This document shows positions 10,650-24,723 of a stretch of DNA of 64,000 nt, piece by piece. How positions within the stretch are numbered: position 1 is the stretch's first letter; every line of letters starts with the position of its first letter. The position numbers were made by a program, and so were the translations under genes. This DNA comes from Escherichia coli 042. Its GTDB lineage: Bacteria; Pseudomonadota; Gammaproteobacteria; Enterobacterales; Enterobacteriaceae. The notes below the pieces were generated by a model. It did not search any database. It was not told the origin of the DNA and saw only the letters and a list, made by a program, of their open reading frames with translations. The DNA is taken from the NCBI RefSeq assembly GCF_000027125.1, contig NC_017626.1; one strand, given 5' to 3'.

Positions 10650-11792
10650 TTAATCCATTAACGGAAACCAGCCAGTTCCTTTCGATGCCTGAATTTGATC
10701 CCATAGTTTATCCGGAATGGTTAATTCAGGAACAAGTTGTGGATTAAGGGTTGTTTGAATTTCATGGCTTCTACCTGATTCAGCTAAAGTCACCCATTCT
10801 GGATTTATCACCAGCCCTTTACCGATCGCAACAAGTGGCAGGCCAGTGGAAATTGCTTCTTGAGCCTGAGACGGTGTGCGTATTTTACCTGCGGCGATTA
10901 CCGGCACTCTGCCTGCAATATGATTTAAAATCAATTCAATAGTTCGGGGGCCATTTGGCGACTCAACAGGGTAGCTATCGTTAATACTGACCAGCGAGGT
11001 ATGTATATACGAAATACCGGATGAAATGAGCCGATCAAGGAGTTTATAAGTATCCTCTATCCGCAGCCCCCCTGTTGCAGATTCTTCAGGAGATATTTTG
11101 TAACCGATGGCAAAGGGCTTTGTCGCATATTCATAGACTACATTTTTTACTTCCTGTAATACGGCCAGCGGGAAGCGCATACGTCCTTCGAGATCTCCTC
11201 CCCATCGGTCATTACGCTGGTTAAATAGAGGGGAGAAGAAATTCTGTAGAAGGAATCCGTGCGCACCATGAAGTTCAATGCCATCAAAACCTGCTTTAAT
11301 CGCCCTTTTTGTGACATCTCCGAATGCTCTAATGGTTTCCTGAATTTCGTTTTCAGTCATTTCCCTGCTTTTTACCACTCTCTTCATAAAGTCACCAGAT
11401 TTTACGCTTGATGCGCTGGCACTAATAACATCGTTATTTGGTACAAGCTCCGGGATGGCTTTATTACCGGCGTGGAAAATCTGCAAAATAGCCGGAGCAC
11501 CGCCACTTTTGGCTGCCGCTGCTAACTTTTCAAGGCTGTTAATGAAACGGTCGTCATACGCGGCAAATTCATGAGTAAACCCAATGCCGTTTGGCGTGAC
11601 ATAGGTACATCCTGTTATTACTAAACCAACATTTTGTGAGCGACGTTTATAAAATTCGAGTTCTTGCTCAGAGATGGTTCCATCAGGATTCGCTGACCAG
11701 GTCGTCATAGGAGCCATAACGATACGATTACGTAGCTTTATTTTTTCTGTCAGCATAAAAGGAGAAAACAATGATGGGTGTTTATTTGTCAT
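10650..11792 (-). CDS. NADH:flavin oxidoreductase, Old Yellow Enzyme family (FMN-dependent ene-reductase)
   Basis: 380-aa ORF with OYE hallmarks (N-terminal ...RIVMAPMTTW..., HGAHGFLL motif); GAGG SD 7 nt upstream of the ATG. Confidence 0.8.
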   Translation of the reverse strand: MTNKHPSLFSPFMLTEKIKLRNRIVMAPMTTWSANPDGTISEQELEFYKRRSQNVGLVITGCTYVTPNGIGFTHEFAAYDDRFINSLEKLAAAAKSGGAPAILQIFHAGNKAIPELVPNNDVISASASSVKSGDFMKRVVKSREMTENEIQETIRAFGDVTKRAIKAGFDGIELHGAHGFLLQNFFSPLFNQRNDRWGGDLEGRMRFPLAVLQEVKNVVYEYATKPFAIGYKISPEESATGGLRIEDTYKLLDRLISSGISYIHTSLVSINDSYPVESPNGPRTIELILNHIAGRVPVIAAGKIRTPSQAQEAISTGLPLVAIGKGLVINPEWVTLAESGRSHEIQTTLNPQLVPELTIPDKLWDQIQASKGTGWFPLMD

Positions 11793-12036
11793 AACAATAC
11801 CTCAAATGTTTATCTGATTTTGATGCGTATGTTTTAACTGGTTAGTTGTTGCCAGCTTTGGAACCAAGGTTTATGGCTTTATTTATAATTCCTTCAAAGG
11901 GTTTCTAATAATCTTAATAATTGAGTTGCTGCTTTTTTGTTTCTTTAATGAAATTTCTTTTTGAGTAATTTTATTATTGTTGTGTAGTCAATAAAGGATA
12001 AATGTCAGGGAGATAAGGAATCTCCCTGTAAGATTA

Positions 12037-12957
12037 TTACAAATGTGTTTTATAAAAAGGAATTAATTTATCGAGTGCCTGTTTCACAGGTTCTGGCTTA
12101 TCATACAGGTCGTAATGTGAATAACCTTCAACCACGACCAGCTCTTTATGTTTTGAGGCAGCGCGGCCAATAATTTCGCAGCCGTCACGGTAGGCACCAA
12201 ATGCGCCCACTCTATCGCCCACCACAACCATTATTGGTTGAGTTAACAGGACTTCTGCAAGATGAAATGCATCCCAACCCACGGCAACAGTCTGATGTGA
12301 GAATAGCGAACGATTTACCCCATTAGGTGCACAGCCTCGTGGCGAACGATAATATTCTGTGGCTTCAAAAAGGTCTATTTCTGTTAATCCCGCTTCAAGA
12401 GCTGCATCCGGAGAAGAGGGGAGTAAATCATCTACGCGAAGTTTTGCGCCGTTAGCTTCGTCTGTTCTTTGTTGCGCCATTGCTTCGAGTGCTCCGATAG
12501 GATTAAACGCTGTAAATCCCTCACGCATAAGACGCCCGTAGTTTGCACCCGTGACAGTACCAATAGCTTTAATTCGACGTTCTGTCATTGCGGCATTAAT
12601 GGCATATCCACCTCCACCACAAATACCCAGTACACCAATACGCCCGGCATCAACGTAAGGTAAGGTGGTAAGGTAATCAACGACAATGCTGAAGTCTTTT
12701 ACTCGCATTGTTGGATCTTCCAGATAACGCGGTTCTCCACCGCTGCTTCCCTGAAAACTGGCATCAAAAGCAATGACGATAAAGCCAGCTTTTGCCAGGG
12801 CGGCACCATACACACTACCCGATGTTTGTTCTTTGCAGCTTCCAATTGGATGGGCGCTGATAATGGCAGGATACTTTTTTTCACTATTAAAATCGTCAGG
12901 GAAATAGATATCAGCAGCTATATCCCAGTAAGTATGTTTTATCGAAACAGTTTTCAT
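12037..12957 (-). CDS. Alpha/beta hydrolase, dienelactone-hydrolase-like, with Cys in the nucleophile elbow
   Basis: 306-aa ORF; motif GVLGICGGGG in the place of the usual G-x-S-x-G, suggesting a Cys nucleophile as in dienelactone hydrolases; GGAG SD upstream. Confidence 0.75.
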   Translation of the reverse strand: MKTVSIKHTYWDIAADIYFPDDFNSEKKYPAIISAHPIGSCKEQTSGSVYGAALAKAGFIVIAFDASFQGSSGGEPRYLEDPTMRVKDFSIVVDYLTTLPYVDAGRIGVLGICGGGGYAINAAMTERRIKAIGTVTGANYGRLMREGFTAFNPIGALEAMAQQRTDEANGAKLRVDDLLPSSPDAALEAGLTEIDLFEATEYYRSPRGCAPNGVNRSLFSHQTVAVGWDAFHLAEVLLTQPIMVVVGDRVGAFGAYRDGCEIIGRAASKHKELVVVEGYSHYDLYDKPEPVKQALDKLIPFYKTHL

Positions 12958-13113
12958 TTCAAGCTCCGGGGAATTGCCTAAACAGATTTAAATATCATTT
13001 CTATTATCCGCAACTGGCATTCGTGTTCATGTCGAGAACGGCGTAATAGTATGACTTGTATTGGTTATCATCAATGGTCTAATATCTATCACAGTGTTAA
13101 GTTAAGGTTTACA

Positions 13114-14040
13114 ATGATGAAAATAGAGCCTTCAATTTTGCCTTCTCTTGCCTGGTTTGCGCTGATTGTTCGTGCCGGCAGTTTTTCCAGAGCCGCTTCT
13201 GAAATGGGTATTACGCGGGCCGCATTGTCCCAGAATTTAAAATCTCTTGAGGAACGTCTTAACACCAAGCTGATATACCGTACGACCCGCAATATGTCGC
13301 TTACTGAGGAAGGACAGCGTCTGTATGAAGTGCTGGTGTCGGCTTTGGGGCAAATTGATGATGCTTTGAAAGATGTTGGTGATACCCAACTTGAACCTAC
13401 AGGCCTGTTGAGAATAAATTCCTCCCGTGTTGCAGCACGGATGCTTGTTGAGCCTCATATTGGCGAGTTTCTTACTCGTTACCCCAAAACAAAGATAGAA
13501 CTCATTATGGATGACGGTTTATCTAACATTATTGCGGACGGCTGTGATGTGGGCATACGTCTTGAGCAAGGACTGGATGAGCATATGACTGCCATTCCTG
13601 TTTCTCCGCTTATTAAACTGGTTACTGTGGCATCGCCAGATTATTTAAAAGAGCACGGTATTCCTGAAACGCCTCAGGAACTGAGTAACCATAATTGCCT
13701 TCGGTTGCGGCATAAAAGTAGTGGTGCACTCTCTGCATGGGAGTTTTCTAATGTTGCGGGGGGTAATGAAGAGTTCGAAATAGAGGTTTCAGGTAAGTAT
13801 ATTTCTAATGATGACGAAAGCATGATACGAATGGCGCTGAATGGAACGGGTATCATTCAACATCTGGATTTTGCAATCGCTGAACATATCAATGCGGGCA
13901 AGTTACAGCCGATTCTTGAGGATTGGGCTGTTTCATTTCCTGGATTTTATATTTATGTTTCATCACGGGTGAGAATGCCCTCTAAAGTTCGTGCTTTTAT
14001 TGATTTTATGGTGGAGAAAAGAGTAAAACTCGAAAATTGA
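13114..14040 (+). CDS. LysR-family transcriptional regulator, divergent from the hydrolase/OYE operon
   Basis: ORF 13051..14040; start set at ATG 13114 (MMKIEP...) with AAGG SD; N-terminal LysR HTH (FSRAASEMGITRAALSQNLKSLEERL). Confidence 0.75.
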   Translation: MMKIEPSILPSLAWFALIVRAGSFSRAASEMGITRAALSQNLKSLEERLNTKLIYRTTRNMSLTEEGQRLYEVLVSALGQIDDALKDVGDTQLEPTGLLRINSSRVAARMLVEPHIGEFLTRYPKTKIELIMDDGLSNIIADGCDVGIRLEQGLDEHMTAIPVSPLIKLVTVASPDYLKEHGIPETPQELSNHNCLRLRHKSSGALSAWEFSNVAGGNEEFEIEVSGKYISNDDESMIRMALNGTGIIQHLDFAIAEHINAGKLQPILEDWAVSFPGFYIYVSSRVRMPSKVRAFIDFMVEKRVKLEN

Positions 14041-14195
14041 TGATATGTGTAATTGATGGTTGCTCTGGGCGAATATCGGTAAGAGGAATAACGTAATCAT
14101 TAGGACGCGTTTACATAATAAACTTTCTGATAATTAATACTTATTTTCTATACGGCCATAATATCAATTATCATTATCACCGGTAATGTGGTTAA

Positions 14196-17071
<2,876 letters not shown>

Positions 17072-17621
17072 TTATCGTTCATGAGAAGCATAACGTAAAG
17101 GGAAGAGCTCGATTAGACGGCAGGATTTGTCAGGGGTTATGAACGAAATTCATAAATCTGCTTGAGTGTTGCGATGAGTCGTGCAAGTTCGATATCCCTG
17201 CAATTCACAGTCTGATGAAGAAAAATGAATATCCATAAAAAATATATTGGTTTATCCTGGTGTATATACCTACTTCGACGTATTCCCAATAGCGATTAAT
17301 TAAAGACAGGTCATTATTATTCACTCTTAATAATGAATTATTCACTGCCCGCAGAGTAAGAAATATAACTTAAGTATCTATTTAATAACTTGCACAAAAA
17401 GCTAAATTTTTACCCATAAATAAAAATATAATCCCGCGCCCAACCACCTGATGAGTGGCTACAGACACTGGATATATTAGGTGGCGGTGTACTTTCTTAC
17501 ATAAAGGTATTTCCTTTTCTGCGGAAAAGGAAACCGGGAAATCCCCGGTTTTTCTGACAAGCAGACGCCATTATTTGTGTCTGCCTATGTTCGTTAATTC
17601 GTTCATCAGGAAATTATCTCA

Positions 17622-20600
17622 ATGTCACGTTATAAAACAGGTCATAAACAACCACGATTTCGTTATTCAGTTCTGGCCCGCTGCGTGGCGTGGGCAAATA
17701 TCTCTGTTCAGGTTCTTTTCCCACTCGCTGTCACCTTTACCCCAGTAATGGCAGCACGCGCGCAGCATGCGGTTCAGCCACGTTTGAGCATGGAAAATAC
17801 CACAGTAGCTGCTGATAATAATGTGGAGAAAAATGTCGCGTCGTTTGCCGCAAATGCCGGGACATTTTTAAGCAGTCAGCCAGATAGCGATGCGACACGT
17901 AACTTTATTACCGGAATGGCCACAGCTAAAGCTAACCAGGAAATACAGGAGTGGCTCGGGAAATATGGTACTGCGCGCGTCAAACTGAATGTCGATAAAG
18001 AATTCTCGCTGAAGGATTCTTCGCTGGAAATGCTTTATCCGATTTATGATACGCCGACAAATATGTTGTTCACTCAGGGAGCAATACATCGTACCGACGA
18101 TCGTACTCAGTCAAATATTGGTTTTGGCTGGCGTCATTTTTCAGGAAATGACTGGATGGCGGGGGTGAACACCTTTATCGACCATGATTTATCCCGTAGT
18201 CATACCCGCATTGGTGTTGGTGCGGAATACTGGCGTGATTATTTGAAATTGAGCGCCAATGGTTATATCCGGGCTTCTGGCTGGAAAAAATCGCCGGATG
18301 TTGAGGATTATCAGGAACGCCCGGCGAATGGCTGGGATATTCGTGCTGAGGGCTATTTACCTGCCTGGCCGCAGCTTGGCGCAAGCCTGATGTATGAACA
18401 GTATTATGGCGATGAAGTCGGGCTGTTTGGTAAAGATAAACGCCAGAAAGATCCACATGCGATTACCGCTGAAGTGAATTACACGCCAGTGCCTCTTCTG
18501 ACCCTGAGTGCCGGGCATAAGCAGGGCAAGAGTGGTGAGAATGACACTCGCTTTGGCCTGGAAGTTAATTATCGGATTGGCGAACCTCTGGAAAAACAAC
18601 TCGATACAGACAGCATTCGCGAGCGTCGAATGCTGGCAGGCAGCCGCTATGACCTGGTTGAGCGTAATAACAATATCGTTCTTGAGTATCGCAAATCTGA
18701 AGTGATCCGTATTGCTCTGCCTGAGCGGATTGAAGGTAAGGGCGGTCAGACACTTTCCCTGGGACTTGTGGTCAGCAAAGCAACTCACGGACTGAAAAAT
18801 GTGCAGTGGGAAGCGCCGTCATTACTGGCTGAAGGTGGCAAAATTACCGGTCAGGGTAGTCAGTGGCAAGTAACGCTCCCGGCTTATCGTCCAGGCAAAG
18901 ACAATTATTATGCGGTTTCAGCGATTGCCTACGATAACAAAGGCAATGCCTCGAAACGTGTGCAGACAGAAGTGGTTATTAGCGGAGCTGGTATGAGCGC
19001 CGATCGTACGGCGTTAACGCTTGACGGTCAGAGCCGTATTCAAATGCTTGCTAACGGTAATGAGCAAAAGCCGCTGGTGCTGTCTCTGCGCGACGCCGAG
19101 GGCCAGCCAGTCACGGGCATGAAAGATCAGATCAAGACTGAACTAACCTTCAAACCGGCTGGAAATATTGTGACTCGTACCCTGAAGGCCACTAAATCAC
19201 AGGCAAAGCCAACACTGGGTGAGTTCACCGAAACTGAAGCAGGGGTGTATCAGTCTGTCTTTACTACCGGCACGCAGTCAGGTGAGGCAACGATTACTGT
19301 TAGCGTTGATGGCATGAGCAAAACCGTCACTGCAGAACTGCGGGCCACGATGATGGATGTGGCAAACTCCACCCTGAGCGCTAACGAGCCATCAGGTGAC
19401 GTGGTTGCTGATGGTCAGCAAGCCTACACGCTGACACTGACAGCGGTGGACTCCGAGGGTAATCCGGTGACGGGAGAAGCCAGCCGCCTGCGACTTGTTC
19501 CGCAAGACACTAATGGTGTAACCGTTGGTGCCATTTCGGAAATAAAACCAGGGGTTTACAGCGCCACGGTTTCTTCGACCCGTGCCGGAAACGTTGTTGT
19601 GCGTGCCTTCAGCGAGCAGTATCAGCTGGGCACATTACAACAAACGCTGAAGTTTGTTGCCGGGCCGCTTGATGCAGCACATTCGTCCATCACCCTGAAT
19701 CCGGATAAACCGGTGGTCGGCGGTACAGTTACGGCAATCTGGACGGCAAAAGATGCCAATGACAACCCTGTAACAGGCCTCAATCCGGATGCACCGTCAT
19801 TATCGGGCGCAGCAGCTGCTGGTTCTACGGCATCTGGCTGGACAAATAATGGTGATGGGACGTGGACTGCGCAGATTACTCTCGGCTCTACGGCGGGTGA
19901 ATTAGAAGTTATGCCGAAGCTAAATGGACAGGATGCGGCAGCAAATGCGGCAAAAGTAACCGTGGTGGCTGATGCATTATCTTCAAACCAGTCGAAAGTC
20001 TCTGTCGCAGAAGATCACGTAAAAGCCGGTGAAAGCACAACCGTAACGCTTATTGCAAAAGATGCGCATGGCAACGCTATCAGTGGTCTTTCGTTGTCGG
20101 CAAGTTTGACGGGGACCGCCTCTGAAGGGGCGACCATTTCCAGTTGGACCGAAAAAGGTGACGGTTCCTATGTTGCTACGTTGACCACAGGCGGAAAGAC
20201 GGGCGAGCTTCGTGTCATGCCTCTCTTCAACGGCCAGCCAGCAGCCACCGAAGCCGCGCAGTTGACGGTCATCGCCGGAGAGATGTCATCAGCGAACTCT
20301 ACGCTTGTTGCGGACAATAAGACTCCAACGGTTAAAACGACGACGGAACTCACCTTCACCGTGAAGGATGCGTACGGGAACCCGGTCACCGGGCTGAAGC
20401 CAGATGCACCAGTGTTTAGCGGTGCCGCCAGCACGGGATCAGCGCGACCTTCAGCAGGAAGCTGGACAGAGCAAAGTAATGGGGTCTACGTGGCGACCTT
20501 AACGCTGGGATCGGCTGCAGGTCAGTTGTCTGTGATGCCGCGAGTGAACGGCCAAAATGCCGTTGCTCAGCCACTGGTGCTGAATGTTGCAGGCGACGCT

Positions 20601-21875
20601 TCCCGGGCAGTGATCAGTGATATGGCGGTGAAGGTGAATAACCAACTGGCAAATGGACAGTCTGCTAACCAGGTAACCCTGACCGTCGTGGACAGCTATG
20701 GTAACCCGTTGCAGGGGCAAGAAGTTACGCTGACTTTACCGCAGGGTGTGACTAGCAAGACGGGGAATACAGTAACAACCAATGCGGCAGGTAAGGCGGA
20801 TATTGAGTTGATATCAACCGTTGCAGGGGAACTTGAAATCGCGGCCGCGGTGAAAAACTCTCAGAAGACGGTCACGGTGAAATTCAACGCGGATGCCAGC
20901 ACCGGTCAGGCAAACCTGCAGGTAGACACCGCCGTTCAAAAAGTGGCAAACGGCAAAGATGCCTTTACGCTGACGGCGACCGTTGAGGATAAAAACGGTA
21001 ACCCTGTTCCAGGCACTCTGGTGACCTTTAATCTGCCCCGGGGTGTCAAGCCGCTTACTGGCGATAATGTCTGGGTGAAAGCCAACGATGAGGGGAAAGC
21101 AGAGTTGCAGGTGGTTTCCGTGACTGCCGGAACCTATGAGATCACGGCGTCGGCAGGAAATGACCAGCCTTCAGATGCGCAGACTATAACGTTTGTAGCC
21201 GATAAGGCTACCGCAACCGTCTCCGGTATTGAGGTGATTGGCAACTATGCACTGGCGGACGGCAAAGCCAAACAGACGTATAAAGTTACGGTGACTGATG
21301 CCAATAACAACCTGTTGAAAGATAGCGACGTGACGCTGACTGCCAGCCCGGCTTCGTTAAACCTGGAACCGAATGGCACTGCGACAACGAATGAGCAAGG
21401 GCAGGCTATTTTCACCGCTACCACTACTGTTGCGGCGACATACACACTCAAGGCGCAAGTGAGTCAGACCAACGGTCAGGTATCAACGAAAACTGCCGAA
21501 TCTAAATTCGTCGCGGATGATAAAAACGCGGAGCTCACCGCATCATCTGATGTGCAATCGCTGGTGGCGGATGGGAAATCGACTGCGAAGCTGGAGGTTA
21601 CCCTGTTCTCGGCAAATAACCCTGTTGGGGGGAATGTGTGGGTCGACATTGAGGCTCCGGAAGGAGTGACGGAGAAGGATTATCAATTCCTGCCGTCGAA
21701 AAATGACCATTTCGTGAGCGGAAAAATCACGCGTACATTTAGTACCAGCAAGCCTGGTGTCTATACGTTCACATTTAACGCCCTGACCTATGGCGGGTAC
21801 GAAATGAAGCCAGTGACGGTGACCATAACCGCGGTGGATGCCGATACGGCAAAGGGCGAGGAGGCGATGAAGTAA
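17622..21875 (+). CDS. fdeC: Intimin/invasin-family inverse autotransporter adhesin with tandem bacterial Ig-like domains (FdeC / EaeH), full length
   Basis: 1417-aa ORF; N-terminal signal/anchor and intimin-like beta-barrel region followed by repeated ~100-aa Ig-like units (recurring ...TLT.VD..GNPVTG... motifs). Confidence 0.9.
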   Translation: MSRYKTGHKQPRFRYSVLARCVAWANISVQVLFPLAVTFTPVMAARAQHAVQPRLSMENTTVAADNNVEKNVASFAANAGTFLSSQPDSDATRNFITGMATAKANQEIQEWLGKYGTARVKLNVDKEFSLKDSSLEMLYPIYDTPTNMLFTQGAIHRTDDRTQSNIGFGWRHFSGNDWMAGVNTFIDHDLSRSHTRIGVGAEYWRDYLKLSANGYIRASGWKKSPDVEDYQERPANGWDIRAEGYLPAWPQLGASLMYEQYYGDEVGLFGKDKRQKDPHAITAEVNYTPVPLLTLSAGHKQGKSGENDTRFGLEVNYRIGEPLEKQLDTDSIRERRMLAGSRYDLVERNNNIVLEYRKSEVIRIALPERIEGKGGQTLSLGLVVSKATHGLKNVQWEAPSLLAEGGKITGQGSQWQVTLPAYRPGKDNYYAVSAIAYDNKGNASKRVQTEVVISGAGMSADRTALTLDGQSRIQMLANGNEQKPLVLSLRDAEGQPVTGMKDQIKTELTFKPAGNIVTRTLKATKSQAKPTLGEFTETEAGVYQSVFTTGTQSGEATITVSVDGMSKTVTAELRATMMDVANSTLSANEPSGDVVADGQQAYTLTLTAVDSEGNPVTGEASRLRLVPQDTNGVTVGAISEIKPGVYSATVSSTRAGNVVVRAFSEQYQLGTLQQTLKFVAGPLDAAHSSITLNPDKPVVGGTVTAIWTAKDANDNPVTGLNPDAPSLSGAAAAGSTASGWTNNGDGTWTAQITLGSTAGELEVMPKLNGQDAAANAAKVTVVADALSSNQSKVSVAEDHVKAGESTTVTLIAKDAHGNAISGLSLSASLTGTASEGATISSWTEKGDGSYVATLTTGGKTGELRVMPLFNGQPAATEAAQLTVIAGEMSSANSTLVADNKTPTVKTTTELTFTVKDAYGNPVTGLKPDAPVFSGAASTGSARPSAGSWTEQSNGVYVATLTLGSAAGQLSVMPRVNGQNAVAQPLVLNVAGDASRAVISDMAVKVNNQLANGQSANQVTLTVVDSYGNPLQGQEVTLTLPQGVTSKTGNTVTTNAAGKADIELISTVAGELEIAAAVKNSQKTVTVKFNADASTGQANLQVDTAVQKVANGKDAFTLTATVEDKNGNPVPGTLVTFNLPRGVKPLTGDNVWVKANDEGKAELQVVSVTAGTYEITASAGNDQPSDAQTITFVADKATATVSGIEVIGNYALADGKAKQTYKVTVTDANNNLLKDSDVTLTASPASLNLEPNGTATTNEQGQAIFTATTTVAATYTLKAQVSQTNGQVSTKTAESKFVADDKNAELTASSDVQSLVADGKSTAKLEVTLFSANNPVGGNVWVDIEAPEGVTEKDYQFLPSKNDHFVSGKITRTFSTSKPGVYTFTFNALTYGGYEMKPVTVTITAVDADTAKGEEAMK

Positions 21876-21910
21876 TATTAAGAATATGAAAGTAACATTC
21901 TAATAAACAA

Positions 21911-21945
21911 TAATGGCGTTGACATCTTCAACGCCATTATTTATT
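21911..21945. terminator. Bidirectional rho-independent terminator between fdeC and ykgA
   Basis: 8-bp stem GGCGTTGA / TCAACGCC (21915-21922, 21928-21935) with a 5-nt loop, flanked by A/T-rich runs on both sides. Confidence 0.6.
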
Positions 21946-21995
21946 GAATTGCCTGACAGTAGTCTCGTTATAAATTCATGTAAACATCGCTACAG

Positions 21996-22853
21996 CTAAA
22001 CCGGGCGAACGGGGATAAAAATTTCGCAAACAATGTTATTGCTATCAATTTCGACGAAGTTTTCATTGTAATAAAATCGCTCAATATCACTGCCGTTCAC
22101 TCTGGCTAACCCCCTGGCAGGTAATTCCATCAGATAGAGGTTTCGCGCCCATTCAGGGTAGTGCTCCCACTCACCTTCATAGCGGAAAGAGGCATACAGT
22201 CCTCGGTTAATTGTCCACTCTTTCGACATCTCTGAATCGGTTTGTTTGCATACCGTACCGGCAAAAGTTTCAACTGTGAGCAAATCGACCGATTTTGTTG
22301 ACGGTTCGAATGTGGAGACGAAATAGATATCCGTCTTAAAACTCTTCATACATCTGGCTAAATGATGACGTCGCAGTTTGACTTCTTCATCCGGTGATTT
22401 ATTCGACACTTCAATGTCATATTTAAATGAATCGCCAAAAATAGGTGTCTCAGGAAAGTTGACTAATCTACACTCCGTCTTTTGCTGTTGACGTATTAAA
22501 AAAGAAGGGAAGATATTTGCGAGATCCCAATAATCACGGTGGCGGTATTCACGGGGAGAGCAGCCGAATAACTTTTTAAATTCGCGGCTGAATGACTGCT
22601 GTGAGTCAAAATGCAAAGAGAGTGCAATATCAAGCATAGATTTCGCGGTGAGTCGGACAAGAATGGCGGCACGACAAAGCCTTCGTTTGCGAATGTATTC
22701 TCCTAAAGGCACATGCATGAAATTTCGGAACAGAAGCTGGATGTTGCGCCTGCTGTAGCCAGATTTCTGTGCGATATCTTCGATTGAAATAGGGTGCTCA
22801 AGATTGCACTCAATCCACTCCAGGAGCTGCTGTAGAATCTTCTGCCTGATCAT
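21996..22853 (-). CDS. ykgA: AraC/XylS-family regulator with C-terminal GyrI-like effector-binding domain
   Basis: ORF 21996..22886 begins at GTG without an SD; start set at ATG 22853 (MIRQKILQQLLEWIE...) preceded by GGAG. N-terminal AraC HTH pair, C-terminal GyrI-like region. Confidence 0.75.
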   Translation of the reverse strand: MIRQKILQQLLEWIECNLEHPISIEDIAQKSGYSRRNIQLLFRNFMHVPLGEYIRKRRLCRAAILVRLTAKSMLDIALSLHFDSQQSFSREFKKLFGCSPREYRHRDYWDLANIFPSFLIRQQQKTECRLVNFPETPIFGDSFKYDIEVSNKSPDEEVKLRRHHLARCMKSFKTDIYFVSTFEPSTKSVDLLTVETFAGTVCKQTDSEMSKEWTINRGLYASFRYEGEWEHYPEWARNLYLMELPARGLARVNGSDIERFYYNENFVEIDSNNIVCEIFIPVRPV

Positions 22854-23085
22854 CACATTCTCCGTTAATTCTTTGTCATATCGCACATTTTCGTTATGTC
22901 CTGGGCCCTAAGTGTATCAAAAATAGCAAGTCCCAAGGCAAAAGCACTGATAGCGTCTGCTTCATTGCCCCAAAAATAGAGAGGTTTCAGTCCTACATTA
23001 TTAATGAATTTTTTGCATAAGTGATATCAAAATCCACATACTAATTTGAGGTTACGTTTTAACGTAGACTCATTGTTCATACCTA

Positions 23086-23970
23086 ATGGAGGGACTGACA
23101 GTGGAATTTTCCGTATTAAGTAACAATCTGAAAATGCCGATGATGGGATTTGGTGTTTTTCAGGTTACCGATAAAGACGTGTGCAAACAGTCAGTGTTGA
23201 ATGCTATCCGCACGGGTTATCGACTCATCGACACTGCAGCGGTATACGGTAATGAAGATGCCGTCGGTGAAGCCGTTCGTGAAGCCATATCTGAAGGTTT
23301 ATGTACCCGAGAAGAGTTATTTATAACGTCTAAATTGTGGGTGCAGGATATGTTGAATCAGGATATTGCAGCAGCAGGTATTGAAGCATCATTAAAAAAA
23401 TCGGGACTGGAATACTTCGATCTCTTTTTATTGCACCAGGCCATGCGCGATTATTTCAGTGCGTGGCGTGCACTCGAAGATGCCTATGAAGAGGGCAAAT
23501 TAAAAGCGATTGGGGTTTCCAATTTCTACCCTCATGTTCTGGCGAACTTTTGTGAAACGGTAAGAGTTAAACCGATGGTCAACCAGGTCGAGTTGCATCC
23601 CTATTTTGCCCAACCAGAGGCGCTGGCAACCATGAAGTATTATAACGTGCAGCCTGAAGCATGGGCTCCGTTAGGTGGTGGACGACATAAACCCTTTGAA
23701 AATAATCTGCTTCAGAGTATTGCAGATGCCCATCAAAAATCGATTTCTCAGGTCATTCTGCGTTGGAATATTCAACGGGGAGTGGTCGTTATTCCGAAAT
23801 CGACACATCAACAGCGTATCGAAGAAAATTTTGCTATTTGGGATTTCTCACTGACAGAGAAAGAAATGGCGCAAATTAGTTCGCTTGATTTGGGTTATGT
23901 TGGGGAATCGGTAAAACATTTTAATCCTGAGTTTGTTCGTGGTTGTCTTGCTGTAAAAATACATGATTGA
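23086..23970 (+). CDS. Aldo-keto reductase (DkgA/YvgN-like), apparently intact
   Basis: 294-aa ORF (…NNLKMPMMGFGVFQV…IDTAAVYGNE…); alternative GTG start at 23101 preceded by GGAGGG. Divergent from ykgA. Confidence 0.75.
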   Translation: MEGLTVEFSVLSNNLKMPMMGFGVFQVTDKDVCKQSVLNAIRTGYRLIDTAAVYGNEDAVGEAVREAISEGLCTREELFITSKLWVQDMLNQDIAAAGIEASLKKSGLEYFDLFLLHQAMRDYFSAWRALEDAYEEGKLKAIGVSNFYPHVLANFCETVRVKPMVNQVELHPYFAQPEALATMKYYNVQPEAWAPLGGGRHKPFENNLLQSIADAHQKSISQVILRWNIQRGVVVIPKSTHQQRIEENFAIWDFSLTEKEMAQISSLDLGYVGESVKHFNPEFVRGCLAVKIHD

Positions 23971-24129
23971 TATTAATCACTTATTTTACCTGAGACGACA
24001 AGAATCTTTTAACAGGGGAGTGATATTGATCTTCACTCTGTCATATCTCCGGTAATATGGCGTCAGGCTTCATCATCAGAAAGGGGGCCTGACGCCTGAA
24101 AAAGTGAACAACAGACAGTGTTCGGATTA

Positions 24130-24723
24130 TCAATATTCAGTTTTTAACGTTGAACTGGATTCATTACTGCGTTGTTTAAGAATTTCCCGCGCCGAATCTG
24201 CCATTATCATGACAGCACCTGCCAGCATCAGAGTATCTTTCAATACCAGGCGACCAGCACCGGATAAATAAGGGAAACCATGATGAGCGTCACCCAATGC
24301 GGGTACCCATGCCTCCGGGGTGGTGATTAAAAATGAGAGTGTTACCAACGGTGTGGTAAATGCCATCAGCCCTCCCAATAAACCTAACCAGCGATTGACA
24401 GGATTAGCCAAAACCAGCAGAGCAATAATCACCTCCACGACGCCAAGACCGTTGGAAAAACCATAGGTATTATTGGCCGTTTGCCATGCCCTTGCTTCTG
24501 GTTTGTATTCGCCTTCGTGAGTCAGATACTGTTTATAGTCTTCCGGGTGTTCATAAAAGAACGACATTAGTGGACTGTTTGCGACGAATGGTGTAATGCT
24601 GTCTGCCTCGTAAGGGACAAACTTTAATAACCCAATCCACATAAAAACAATCGCAATACTCAGACGAATCAATGTCAGGCCAATTTTATCTCCCCGACTT
24701 AACAGGTGCAGGTATTTCTCCAT
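24130..24723 (-). CDS. rclC: RclC, inner-membrane protein of the reactive-chlorine resistance operon (DUF417)
   Basis: ORF 24130..24732; start set at MEKYL (ATG 24723); multiple hydrophobic segments; last gene of rclABC. Confidence 0.8.
   Translation of the reverse strand: MEKYLHLLSRGDKIGLTLIRLSIAIVFMWIGLLKFVPYEADSITPFVANSPLMSFFYEHPEDYKQYLTHEGEYKPEARAWQTANNTYGFSNGLGVVEVIIALLVLANPVNRWLGLLGGLMAFTTPLVTLSFLITTPEAWVPALGDAHHGFPYLSGAGRLVLKDTLMLAGAVMIMADSAREILKQRSNESSSTLKTEY

Follow-up and report, generated by a model that had tools for sequence, protein, structure and literature searches.

In Escherichia coli 042 the gene for an AraC-family regulator, ykgA, stands head to head with a gene for an aldo-keto reductase (AKR) within the window, which here means the whole 64,000-nucleotide stretch of contig NC_017626.1 that was analysed. 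From this arrangement an earlier note proposed a xenobiotic-responsive regulator/reductase pair that is intact here and decayed in K-12. Do the two genes form such a pair, or are they independent genes that have come to adjoin? We addressed this from the proteins, the K-12 remnants, the spacer between the genes and the neighbourhoods of both genes in other genomes.

The reductase gene and its product

The AKR gene lies on the plus strand at 23101-23970. The program-made open reading frame spans 23086-23970 (294 aa); according to the RefSeq annotation and to orthologues from eight genera, translation begins at GTG 23101 and the product is 289 aa long. This codon is preceded by a GGAGGG ribosome-binding site (23088-23093), and conservation in the orthologue alignment ends just upstream of it. 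The frame is uninterrupted with a single terminal stop, and 289 aa is the length of the orthologues in eight taxa. The closest solved structure is 1VP5 (E 1e-83, 45% identity over 280 aligned positions), with which residues 5-284 align with a lone gap of one residue in the query. The complete reductase frame described in the earlier note is confirmed, as the alignments with orthologues and a solved structure rule out both a wrong start codon and a frameshift hidden by the choice of start.

The protein scores 146.9 bits with the Pfam family Aldo_ket_red (PF00248; cutoff 24), the match spanning residues 28-267 of the 294-aa frame. The catalytic tetrad is complete, with D44, Y49, K78 and H112 falling on the IDTA, Y, K and IHQ of 1VP5. 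The AKR5-group proteins TM1009 (the protein of 1VP5), YtbE, YvgN, DkgA and DkgB belong to the same fold family, have this tetrad and are of comparable length; Thermotoga maritima TM1009 shows 45% identity, and strong matches are given by Bacillus subtilis YtbE and YvgN and by E. coli DkgA. What sets the gene apart from these relatives is that K-12 has no intact copy of it and that its product scores below the equivalog cutoffs for both DkgA (NF008598, 231.9 bits, cutoff 425) and DkgB (163 bits, cutoff 327), and it therefore constitutes a separate orthologous group. The DkgA-like label given previously is apt in that DkgA is the best-scoring NCBIfam model, but the score falls short of equivalence, and among solved structures E. 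coli DkgA (1MZR) is a weaker match than TM1009. Judged by its sequence, the product is a predicted NAD(P)H-dependent carbonyl reductase of the DkgA/YvgN/TM1009 group.

Orthologues of 289 aa that are 80-85% identical occur in Klebsiella, Kluyvera, Enterobacter, Salmonella salamae, Vibrio and Marinomonas. Recent horizontal transfer was rejected as the cause of this cross-genus identity because synonymous sites are saturated; amino acid identity has been kept across the Gammaproteobacteria regardless. Within this group dN/dS is 0.04-0.09, with one close pair at 0.14, showing strong purifying selection.

The regulator and its relation to Rob

The regulator gene ykgA occupies 21996-22853 on the minus strand and encodes a 285-aa paralogue of Rob. 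The program-made frame (21996-22886, minus strand) is 296 aa long with a GTG start; RefSeq and orthologue alignments identify the ATG at 22853 as the start codon, so that the protein begins MIRQKIL. The same coordinates are given in the RefSeq annotation of a 100%-identical genome, NZ_AP022298. Matches to the Pfam models HTH_18, HTH_AraC and GyrI-like all exceed their gathering scores, which confirms the two-domain description of the earlier note. The N-terminus is a MarA-type double helix-turn-helix domain, as found by Pfam and by alignment to SoxS, RamA and MarA structures, and the C-terminus is a GyrI-like domain (PF06445, 45.5 bits, cutoff 26, residues 138-294 of the 296-aa frame).

This is the layout of Rob, and YkgA aligns end to end with the Rob structures 7VWY and 1D5Y (E ~1e-38, reaching the C-terminus). 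Its scores against the two NCBIfam RobA models are both below cutoff (193.7 bits against 380 and 172 against 426), and on sequence criteria YkgA is not a Rob orthologue. Unlike Rob, it is encoded by a strain-variable accessory gene that adjoins fdeC in nearly every orthologue locus examined. The second recognition helix, QQSFSREF (DSQQSFSREFKK), is conserved with MarA and SoxS. The first differs, reading SRRNIQLLF in place of the SKW(H/Y)LQRMF of MarA, SoxS and Rob, and is invariant among all YkgA orthologues examined. The differing positions are those which contact the GCAC element in the MarA-DNA structure. By homology, YkgA probably activates transcription in response to a small molecule. 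In a published comparison (PMC2064960) it was grouped with MarA, SoxS and Rob, its function and targets being described there as not identified.

The ykgA gene is under purifying selection (dN/dS 0.10-0.28, including comparisons with lineages lacking the AKR gene), and dN/dS is not elevated in the AKR-less lineages sampled.

Each of the two genes is bounded by a hairpin at its 3′ side. One, a terminator-like site at 21909-21941 (-20.5 kcal/mol, z-score -6.75), falls in the convergent fdeC/ykgA gap and is probably a two-way terminator between these genes. The other, at 24059-24096 (-29.9 kcal/mol, z-score -4.5), probably serves in the same way between AKR and rclC, which also converge. No Rfam match was found in 21700-24300 or 17000-17700.

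Decay of the locus in K-12

Alignment with K-12 shows no intact reductase there, and the ykgQ remnant that the earlier note placed beside ykgA is indeed present as an annotated 129-bp pseudogene, corresponding to 23842-23970 of the window. K-12 lacks 23115-23701 (587 bp) and 23742-23841 (100 bp), the latter lying between 9-bp direct repeats (GATTTCTCA, at 23742-23750 and 23842-23850). Both deletion junctions are identical in K-12, E. coli B and the chicken isolate GPEC60-12-649. The intact-here, decayed-in-K-12 contrast therefore holds for K-12 itself, but not as a trait peculiar to that strain, since E. coli B and GPEC60 carry the same junctions.

The contrast had also overlooked the regulator. 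In K-12 ykgA is itself a pseudogene truncated by IS3A, and the IS3A-associated deletion spans the 3′ part of fdeC as well as the final ~65 codons of ykgA. In E. coli B and GPEC60, both without the AKR gene, ykgA is annotated as intact. The K-12 state arose through separate events, namely an old two-deletion allele of the AKR gene and, separately, an IS3A-associated deletion in fdeC/ykgA.

A modular spacer between the two genes

Between the true start codons the spacer (22854-23100) measures 247 bp and has a G+C content of 37.7%, against 49.5% for the whole window. The divergence and A/T-richness noted earlier stand, while the length of ~230 bp needs correction. The spacer is modular: a ykgA-side and an AKR-side block join at ~22952, and it is exactly there that E. 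whittamii carries an insert of ~147 bp.

The ykgA-side half (22854-22952, minus strand), containing the ykgA promoter and leader, was delimited by homology to an Escherichia lineage (locus L005) that bears ykgA and lacks the AKR gene; this homology extends from the ykgA coding sequence to 22959 and then ends. The supplement of PMC12052159 includes a start of ykgA transcription in K-12. With an assumed coordinate shift between K-12 genome versions, it would map to about window position 22921 on the minus strand.

On the other side, a conserved block (22994-23046, plus strand) accompanies the AKR gene in several Enterobacteriaceae. Compared with the sequence that precedes the S. salamae AKR gene it shows 78% identity across 50 nt, and with its Klebsiella counterpart 83% across 30 nt; it aligns also in Kluyvera and E. 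whittamii. None of the non-Escherichia AKR loci that share the block has ykgA nearby. Downstream of it, the alignment points to a predicted -10 hexamer, TAGACT (23065-23070, plus strand), whose position is taken by TATAAT in S. salamae, TACAAT in Marinomonas, TAGTAT in Kluyvera and TACCAT in Klebsiella. This predicted promoter has no good -35 hexamer and is not reported by a simple promoter scan; transcription from it would begin at ~23077. As the simple sigma-70 scan found no strong promoter anywhere in the ykgA-AKR spacer, the promoter positions are therefore inferred from conservation.

Three candidate elements in the spacer were rejected. The best marbox matches have 4-5 mismatches in the 14 specified positions; YkgA could bind the spacer all the same, because its own motif may not be a marbox. 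The best likeness to the box found at fdeC (see below) is 11 of 18 positions, a score equalled by 74% of shuffled sequences. Lastly, a palindrome at 23047-23072 might have marked an operator or a structured RNA; in E. whittamii the left arm is altered without compensation, and the fold z-score is only -1.3.

Distribution among E. coli genomes and metagenomes

Presence of the genes, defined as coverage of at least 80%, was scored in 5,426 complete E. coli genomes. The AKR gene was present in 2,936 and ykgA in 4,637 of them. The whole pair was found in 2,929, so that nearly all AKR-bearing genomes have ykgA next to it. A short remnant alone represents the AKR gene in ~2,100 genomes (~39%), covering the same part of the gene in every sampled case, and at least ~1,700 genomes contain a near-full-length ykgA without AKR. 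Presence or absence of ykgA and AKR is thus a common strain polymorphism of annotated accessory genes.

Metagenomic contigs were retrieved by the YkgA helix motif in a scan that recovered almost only Escherichia. On the AKR side of ykgA, 14 loci had a full gene, 17 a remnant, two a partial gene and three none. On its other side fdeC adjoined ykgA in 54 of the 55 loci with enough flanking sequence. A further scan of species-representative genomes used exact peptide words and yielded five loci only.

Gene neighbourhoods across genera

Examined from both the regulator and the reductase side, the juxtaposition of ykgA and AKR is confined to Escherichia. Within the genus the pair is also present in E. 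whittamii and Escherichia sp. E1V33, both of which lack the rcl operon, and the divergent arrangement has been kept over a synonymous divergence of ~0.5. Such retention is predicted by local regulation, and also by simple linkage. Lineages differ in whether they have the 6.3-kb island, the rcl operon and AKR, the last being missing from the Escherichia lineage of locus L005 mentioned above. None of the YkgA relatives at loci L005, L008-L010 and L021-L025 has an adjoining AKR gene. Conversely, the AKR orthologues of six other genera stand in six different contexts, and no YkgA relative adjoins those of Klebsiella, V. natriegens, S. salamae, Kluyvera, E. ludwigii or Marinomonas.

The company that ykgA keeps outside Escherichia is fdeC. 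In both Salmonella and GCA_051411795 the ykgA orthologue, 68% and 66% identical respectively, is convergent with a neighbouring fdeC orthologue; the two loci have different chromosomal surroundings, and neither contains AKR.

The reading that we prefer, and which in our estimation has an even chance of being correct, is that ykgA and AKR are two intact, separately transcribed accessory genes that stand head to head only in Escherichia. The AKR gene would be expressed from its own promoter, with the predicted -10 at 23065-23070 and the conserved block 22994-23046 before it, and the conserved genomic partner of ykgA would be fdeC on its other side rather than AKR.

The fdeC promoter as a candidate target

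FdeC is an adhesin and vaccine candidate. Its promoter core (17389-17432, plus strand) lies outside the ykgA-AKR segment. A marbox-like 20-mer (CTTGCACAAAAAGCTAAATT, 17389-17408) is separated in it by 18 bp from TATAAT (17427-17432). The 20-mer agrees with the marbox at 13 of its 14 specified positions and contains GCAC (17392-17395) and GCTAAAT (17401-17407). Box, spacer length and -10 are invariant across three genera (E. coli, Salmonella CP191473 and GCA_051411795), the middle of the spacer being variable, and the site is retained in K-12. The box is centred near -40.5 relative to the predicted start site (~17439), a position that fits the definition of class II given in PMC12052159 and PMC10268841. 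The fdeC leader, 180 nt long and conserved, contains a terminator-like hairpin at 17535-17557. In the window as a whole marbox matches occur at chance level (2 observed, 1.45 expected). The ykgA gene sits 4.6 kb from the fdeC promoter because the two genes are convergent.

The conservation of this site suggests that fdeC may be controlled by YkgA or by MarA, SoxS or Rob. A conserved marbox-like class II site would make fdeC the more likely local target of YkgA. The first recognition helix of YkgA is unlike that of MarA, SoxS and Rob, and the GCAC-containing site may therefore belong to one of those three and not to YkgA.

With this in mind, we advance tentatively, as possible but less likely than not, the idea that YkgA is a specific activator of FdeC, that ykgA and fdeC form a module which has moved between Escherichia, Salmonella and another enterobacterial genome, and that AKR is a bystander. 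The nearly invariant DNA-binding domain of YkgA would recognise the candidate site at 17389-17408, and the signal for its GyrI-like domain, which is more variable, would be a small molecule derived from the host.

Alternative explanations

Under the pair model, the GyrI-like domain of YkgA would detect a xenobiotic or carbonyl compound and the regulator would activate AKR, making the two a dedicated detoxification pair. The nearest known system is that of YqhC and yqhD-dkgA in E. coli K-12, where an AraC-family regulator is likewise head to head with aldehyde reductase genes and these are induced by reactive aldehydes. YqhC is not of the Rob type, with its N-terminal helix-turn-helix and C-terminal GyrI-like domain. 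The head-to-head genes with their 247-bp AT-rich spacer fit this model, as do the near-constant presence of ykgA beside AKR in complete genomes, the retention of the pair in E. coli, E. whittamii and Escherichia sp. E1V33 despite differing downstream genes, and the -35-less predicted AKR promoter, which suggests dependence on an activator. Against it, adjacency is not conserved outside Escherichia, seen from either gene, and the block upstream of AKR is kept in several Enterobacteriaceae where ykgA is not next door. Moreover, ykgA is near full length in many genomes from which AKR is gone, with no relaxation of selection in the AKR-less lineages sampled, and the spacer contains neither a marbox nor likeness to the fdeC box beyond chance. 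The claim of a xenobiotic-responsive pair is not supported by these data, and we consider it unlikely.

YkgA might instead have no local target at all, acting as a fourth member of the MarA/SoxS/Rob circuit on marbox promoters throughout the genome, its position being accidental in a locus of high turnover. Its full-length alignment to Rob, its second recognition helix, the grouping made in PMC2064960 and the frequent changes in gene content (6.3-kb island, rcl operon, AKR) are in keeping with this. However, its first recognition helix differs from those of the three established members, ykgA is dispensable in K-12, and the occurrence of ykgA together with fdeC in three chromosomal contexts is hard to explain without some coupling. 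We regard this explanation as doubtful.

That both genes are functionless leftovers in the course of being lost, intact here by chance, is highly improbable: the widespread AKR remnant and the truncation of ykgA, seen in K-12 as well as in numerous fragmentary protein clusters, point that way, but both genes are under purifying selection and AKR retains its amino acid identity across the Gammaproteobacteria despite saturated synonymous sites.

Implications

As two accessory genes that vary among strains, ykgA and AKR make an ordinary finding, because the locus is already annotated and published: the K-12 pseudogenes ykgA and ykgQ are curated, and the 'fdeC cluster' drawn by Nesta et al. (2012, PMC3324786) is the same locus. 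In that study ykgA and AKR were not analysed individually and no regulator of fdeC was proposed. What the comparison does bring out is that K-12 is a poor reference here, having lost fdeC, ykgA and AKR together with a 6.3-kb block containing two more AKR genes. Moreover, the company of ykgA is fdeC rather than the reductase, and the conserved activator-type candidate site at the fdeC promoter points to a possible regulator of this adhesin. If YkgA is indeed an activator of FdeC, this would account for the silence of FdeC in culture and for its switch-on at host cells.

Layout of the ykgA locus

The window was 100% identical to strain BEC1-S17-ESBL-09 and is E. coli chromosome. An intact fdeC (17622-21875, plus strand, 1,417 aa) is followed by ykgA (21996-22853, minus strand, 285 aa) and by a gene for an aldo-keto reductase (AKR; 23101-23970, plus strand, 289 aa), beyond which lie rclC, rclB and rclA on the minus strand and then rclR. 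The start codons of ykgA (ATG, 22853) and of the AKR gene (GTG, 23101) are supported by RefSeq and by orthologue alignments; a mechanical ORF list gave longer versions of 296 and 294 aa, respectively. The GTG is preceded by GGAGGG (23088-23093), and conservation among eight taxa ends just upstream of it. The two start codons are separated by 247 bp of spacer DNA with a G+C content of 37.7% (window 49.5%). Strong hairpins part fdeC from ykgA (21909-21941, z -6.75) and the AKR gene from rclC (24059-24096, z -4.5), so that fdeC, ykgA and the AKR gene each look like a single-gene transcription unit. A frameshift in the AKR reading frame was looked for and none is present. The observation of an intact, divergent ykgA and reductase was confirmed.

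The AKR protein matches Pfam PF00248 (147 bits), and sequence and structure alignment place the catalytic residues D44, Y49, K78 and H112. Among solved structures, Thermotoga TM1009 (1VP5) is the nearest to it (E 1e-83, 45% identity); 4MHB, YtbE and YvgN come next, and E. coli DkgA matches less well. The equivalog cutoffs for DkgA and DkgB were not reached. YkgA contains HTH_18, HTH_AraC and GyrI-like domains. Rob structures align with it end to end (E about 1e-38), and those of SoxS, RamA and MarA align with its N-terminal domain. Its score is far below the RobA equivalog cutoff and it is therefore a paralogue of Rob, not Rob itself. Between E. coli and Salmonella the DNA-binding domain (residues 1-105) has hardly changed; the GyrI-like domain diverges. 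A 2007 paper stated the function and targets of YkgA to be unidentified (PMC2064960).

Decay of the locus in K-12 and in the E. coli population

In the MG1655 annotation eaeH, ykgA and ykgQ are pseudogenes, with IS3A between eaeH and ykgA. Alignment revealed two segments of the AKR gene that are absent from K-12, one of 587 bp (deletion 1, 23115-23701) and one of 100 bp (deletion 2, 23742-23841), the latter between 9-bp direct repeats GATTTCTCA. K-12 retains the first few codons, a 40-bp piece from the middle and the terminal 129 bp, the last of which is ykgQ. Annotation and alignment thus bear out the earlier note in that K-12 carries only a remnant of the reductase, to which must be added that ykgA is broken there as well. 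It stops at about window position 22193, where IS3A follows; the associated deletion (window 18498 to about 22192) took with it the 3′ portion of fdeC and some 65 codons from the end of ykgA.

We surveyed 5,426 complete E. coli genomes, taking a coverage of 80% or more as presence. The AKR gene was present in 2,936, ykgA in 4,637 and the whole pair in 2,929. About 2,100 genomes held only a short AKR remnant, and about 380 had no match; all sampled remnants consist of two pieces and match in the part of the gene that they cover. Both deletion junctions are identical across K-12, E. coli B and the chicken isolate GPEC60-12-649, which speaks for a single old allele rather than for decay peculiar to the laboratory strain. 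In B (283 aa) and GPEC60 (285 aa) ykgA is annotated as intact. In the E. coli B genome rclA is annotated as frameshifted (L017:5393-6744).

Another common allele of ykgA, coding for 283 aa with ~92% amino acid identity to the version in the window, occurs in E. coli B (L017:3001-3852) and in metagenome loci (L031-L101). It shares 90-92% identity with the proteins of E. whittamii and Escherichia sp. E1V33, against 85-89% for other E. coli alleles. Its occurrence both beside a full AKR gene and beside the remnant suggests an old allele or recombination.

Two further differences from K-12 were found. The AtoC binding site ACTATACGGAAAATTCCACT, published for the K-12 ykgA-ykgQ spacer around K-12 position 317400 (PMC3118216), is the reverse complement of the sequence across the AKR start codon and the deletion 1 junction (window 23098-23117); as it spans that junction, the exact site exists only in the deleted allele. 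A 6.3-kb block (window 10742-17070) is absent in K-12, where the clean junction lies at position 313807, beside the ykgP pseudogene. Within the block are genes for an alpha/beta hydrolase (12037-12957), for LysR regulators at 13051-14040 and 14223-15158, and for further AKRs at 15189-16178 and 16205-17056, so that the strain has three AKR genes near fdeC that are missing from K-12.

Both ykgA and the AKR gene have annotations in thousands of RefSeq genomes, curated entries exist for the K-12 pseudogenes, and the 2012 FdeC paper drew the locus with putative regulators and reductases, truncated in K-12 (PMC3324786). The intact locus is therefore already known and ordinary.

ykgA and the reductase gene as neighbours

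The earlier note had interpreted the two genes as a regulator/reductase pair. In E. whittamii (L004) and Escherichia sp. E1V33 (L003) fdeC, ykgA and the divergent AKR gene are all kept and the rcl operon is absent at the site; rclC, rclB, rclA and rclR are all missing, and ykgE and ykgF directly follow the AKR gene. A divergent Escherichia lineage (L005, YkgA 81% identical) has fdeC and ykgA with no AKR gene at the locus. No AKR gene was found at the locus in a Salmonella genome (YkgA 68% identical) or in GCA_051411795 (66% identical) either, where ykgA lies tail to tail with an fdeC orthologue in differing chromosomal surroundings. YkgA relatives at 42-50% identity have unrelated neighbours. 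Viewed from the other side, AKR orthologues of 80-85% identity occur in Klebsiella, Kluyvera, Enterobacter ludwigii, Salmonella salamae, Vibrio natriegens and Marinomonas, and in these six different contexts, from six genera examined, none lies beside a YkgA relative. Recent transfer as the source of this identity is ruled out by the saturation of AKR synonymous sites between genera, and the identity therefore comes from constraint (dN/dS 0.04-0.09, with one close pair at 0.14). For ykgA dN/dS was 0.10-0.28, and comparisons with AKR-less lineages were no higher.

The spacer is, judging by its alignments, modular. Homology to the AKR-less L005 extends from ykgA up to window 22959 and then ends, an AKR-proximal block (22994-23046) is common to the AKR upstream regions of S. 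salamae, Klebsiella and Kluyvera, and an insertion of roughly 147 bp in L004 and L003 falls at the block junction near 22952. Taken together, the neighbourhoods from both sides, selection and spacer modularity argue that ykgA and the AKR gene each came with a control region of their own and that their juxtaposition is specific to Escherichia. Of the earlier interpretation, one part stands, namely that the locus is intact in this strain and decayed in K-12; the dedicated pair is not supported. Within Escherichia, YkgA may still act on the AKR gene.

In Klebsiella (L011-L013) the AKR orthologue is last in a hydrolase-MFS transporter-AKR row divergent from a LysR regulator, and in E. ludwigii (L027) it follows a short-chain dehydrogenase gene that is likewise divergent from a LysR gene. 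A local AKR regulator in these genera, if there is any, would be of the LysR and not the AraC type.

Association of ykgA with fdeC

fdeC adjoins ykgA in nearly every orthologue locus examined. Among metagenome contigs found via a YkgA-specific helix motif, 54/55 loci with enough flank had fdeC adjacent to ykgA; on the AKR side, 14 held a full gene, 17 a remnant, 3 none and 2 a partial gene. Alignment of the regions upstream of fdeC from E. coli, Salmonella and GCA_051411795 revealed an invariant 20-mer, CTTGCACAAAAAGCTAAATT (17389-17408), which in forward orientation matches 13 of the 14 specified positions of the consensus for the marbox, the site type of MarA, SoxS and Rob. It is followed by an 18-bp spacer of fixed length and variable middle and by an invariant TATAAT (17427-17432); a -35 hexamer is lacking, and K-12 keeps this arrangement. 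[quoted passage not shown] Marbox matches in the window as a whole are at chance level (2 observed, 1.45 expected). At 214-233 bp from the fdeC start codon, the site is too far upstream to fall within the 200 bp to which a published MarA site screen was limited.

The predicted fdeC leader of about 180 nt (17440-17621) is highly conserved across three genera and folds into three hairpins with a few compensatory changes; it had no Rfam match. One of the three hairpins is terminator-like (CCGGG-AAAT-CCCCGG then TTTTTCT, 17535-17557), and the leader may be an attenuator.

One paper reportedly describes regulation of FdeC by H-NS and temperature. FdeC is reported to be silent in vitro and induced upon host cell contact (PMC3324786). 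Within the literature library searched, no paper linked ykgA to fdeC. Since the first recognition helix of YkgA is unlike that of MarA, SoxS and Rob, the predicted site could belong to one of these three; activation of fdeC by YkgA itself is a tentative and rather doubtful proposal.

In L029 (2433-4650), a PapD-type fimbrial chaperone gene directly follows, on the same strand, a distant YkgA-like gene whose product (48% identical) has a GyrI-like domain and shares the SRRNIQLLF helix of YkgA; by gene context this is a further association of the YkgA family with adhesin genes. The only new lead from this locus is thus a possible ykgA-fdeC module, with a conserved, putatively activator-type site in the fdeC promoter.
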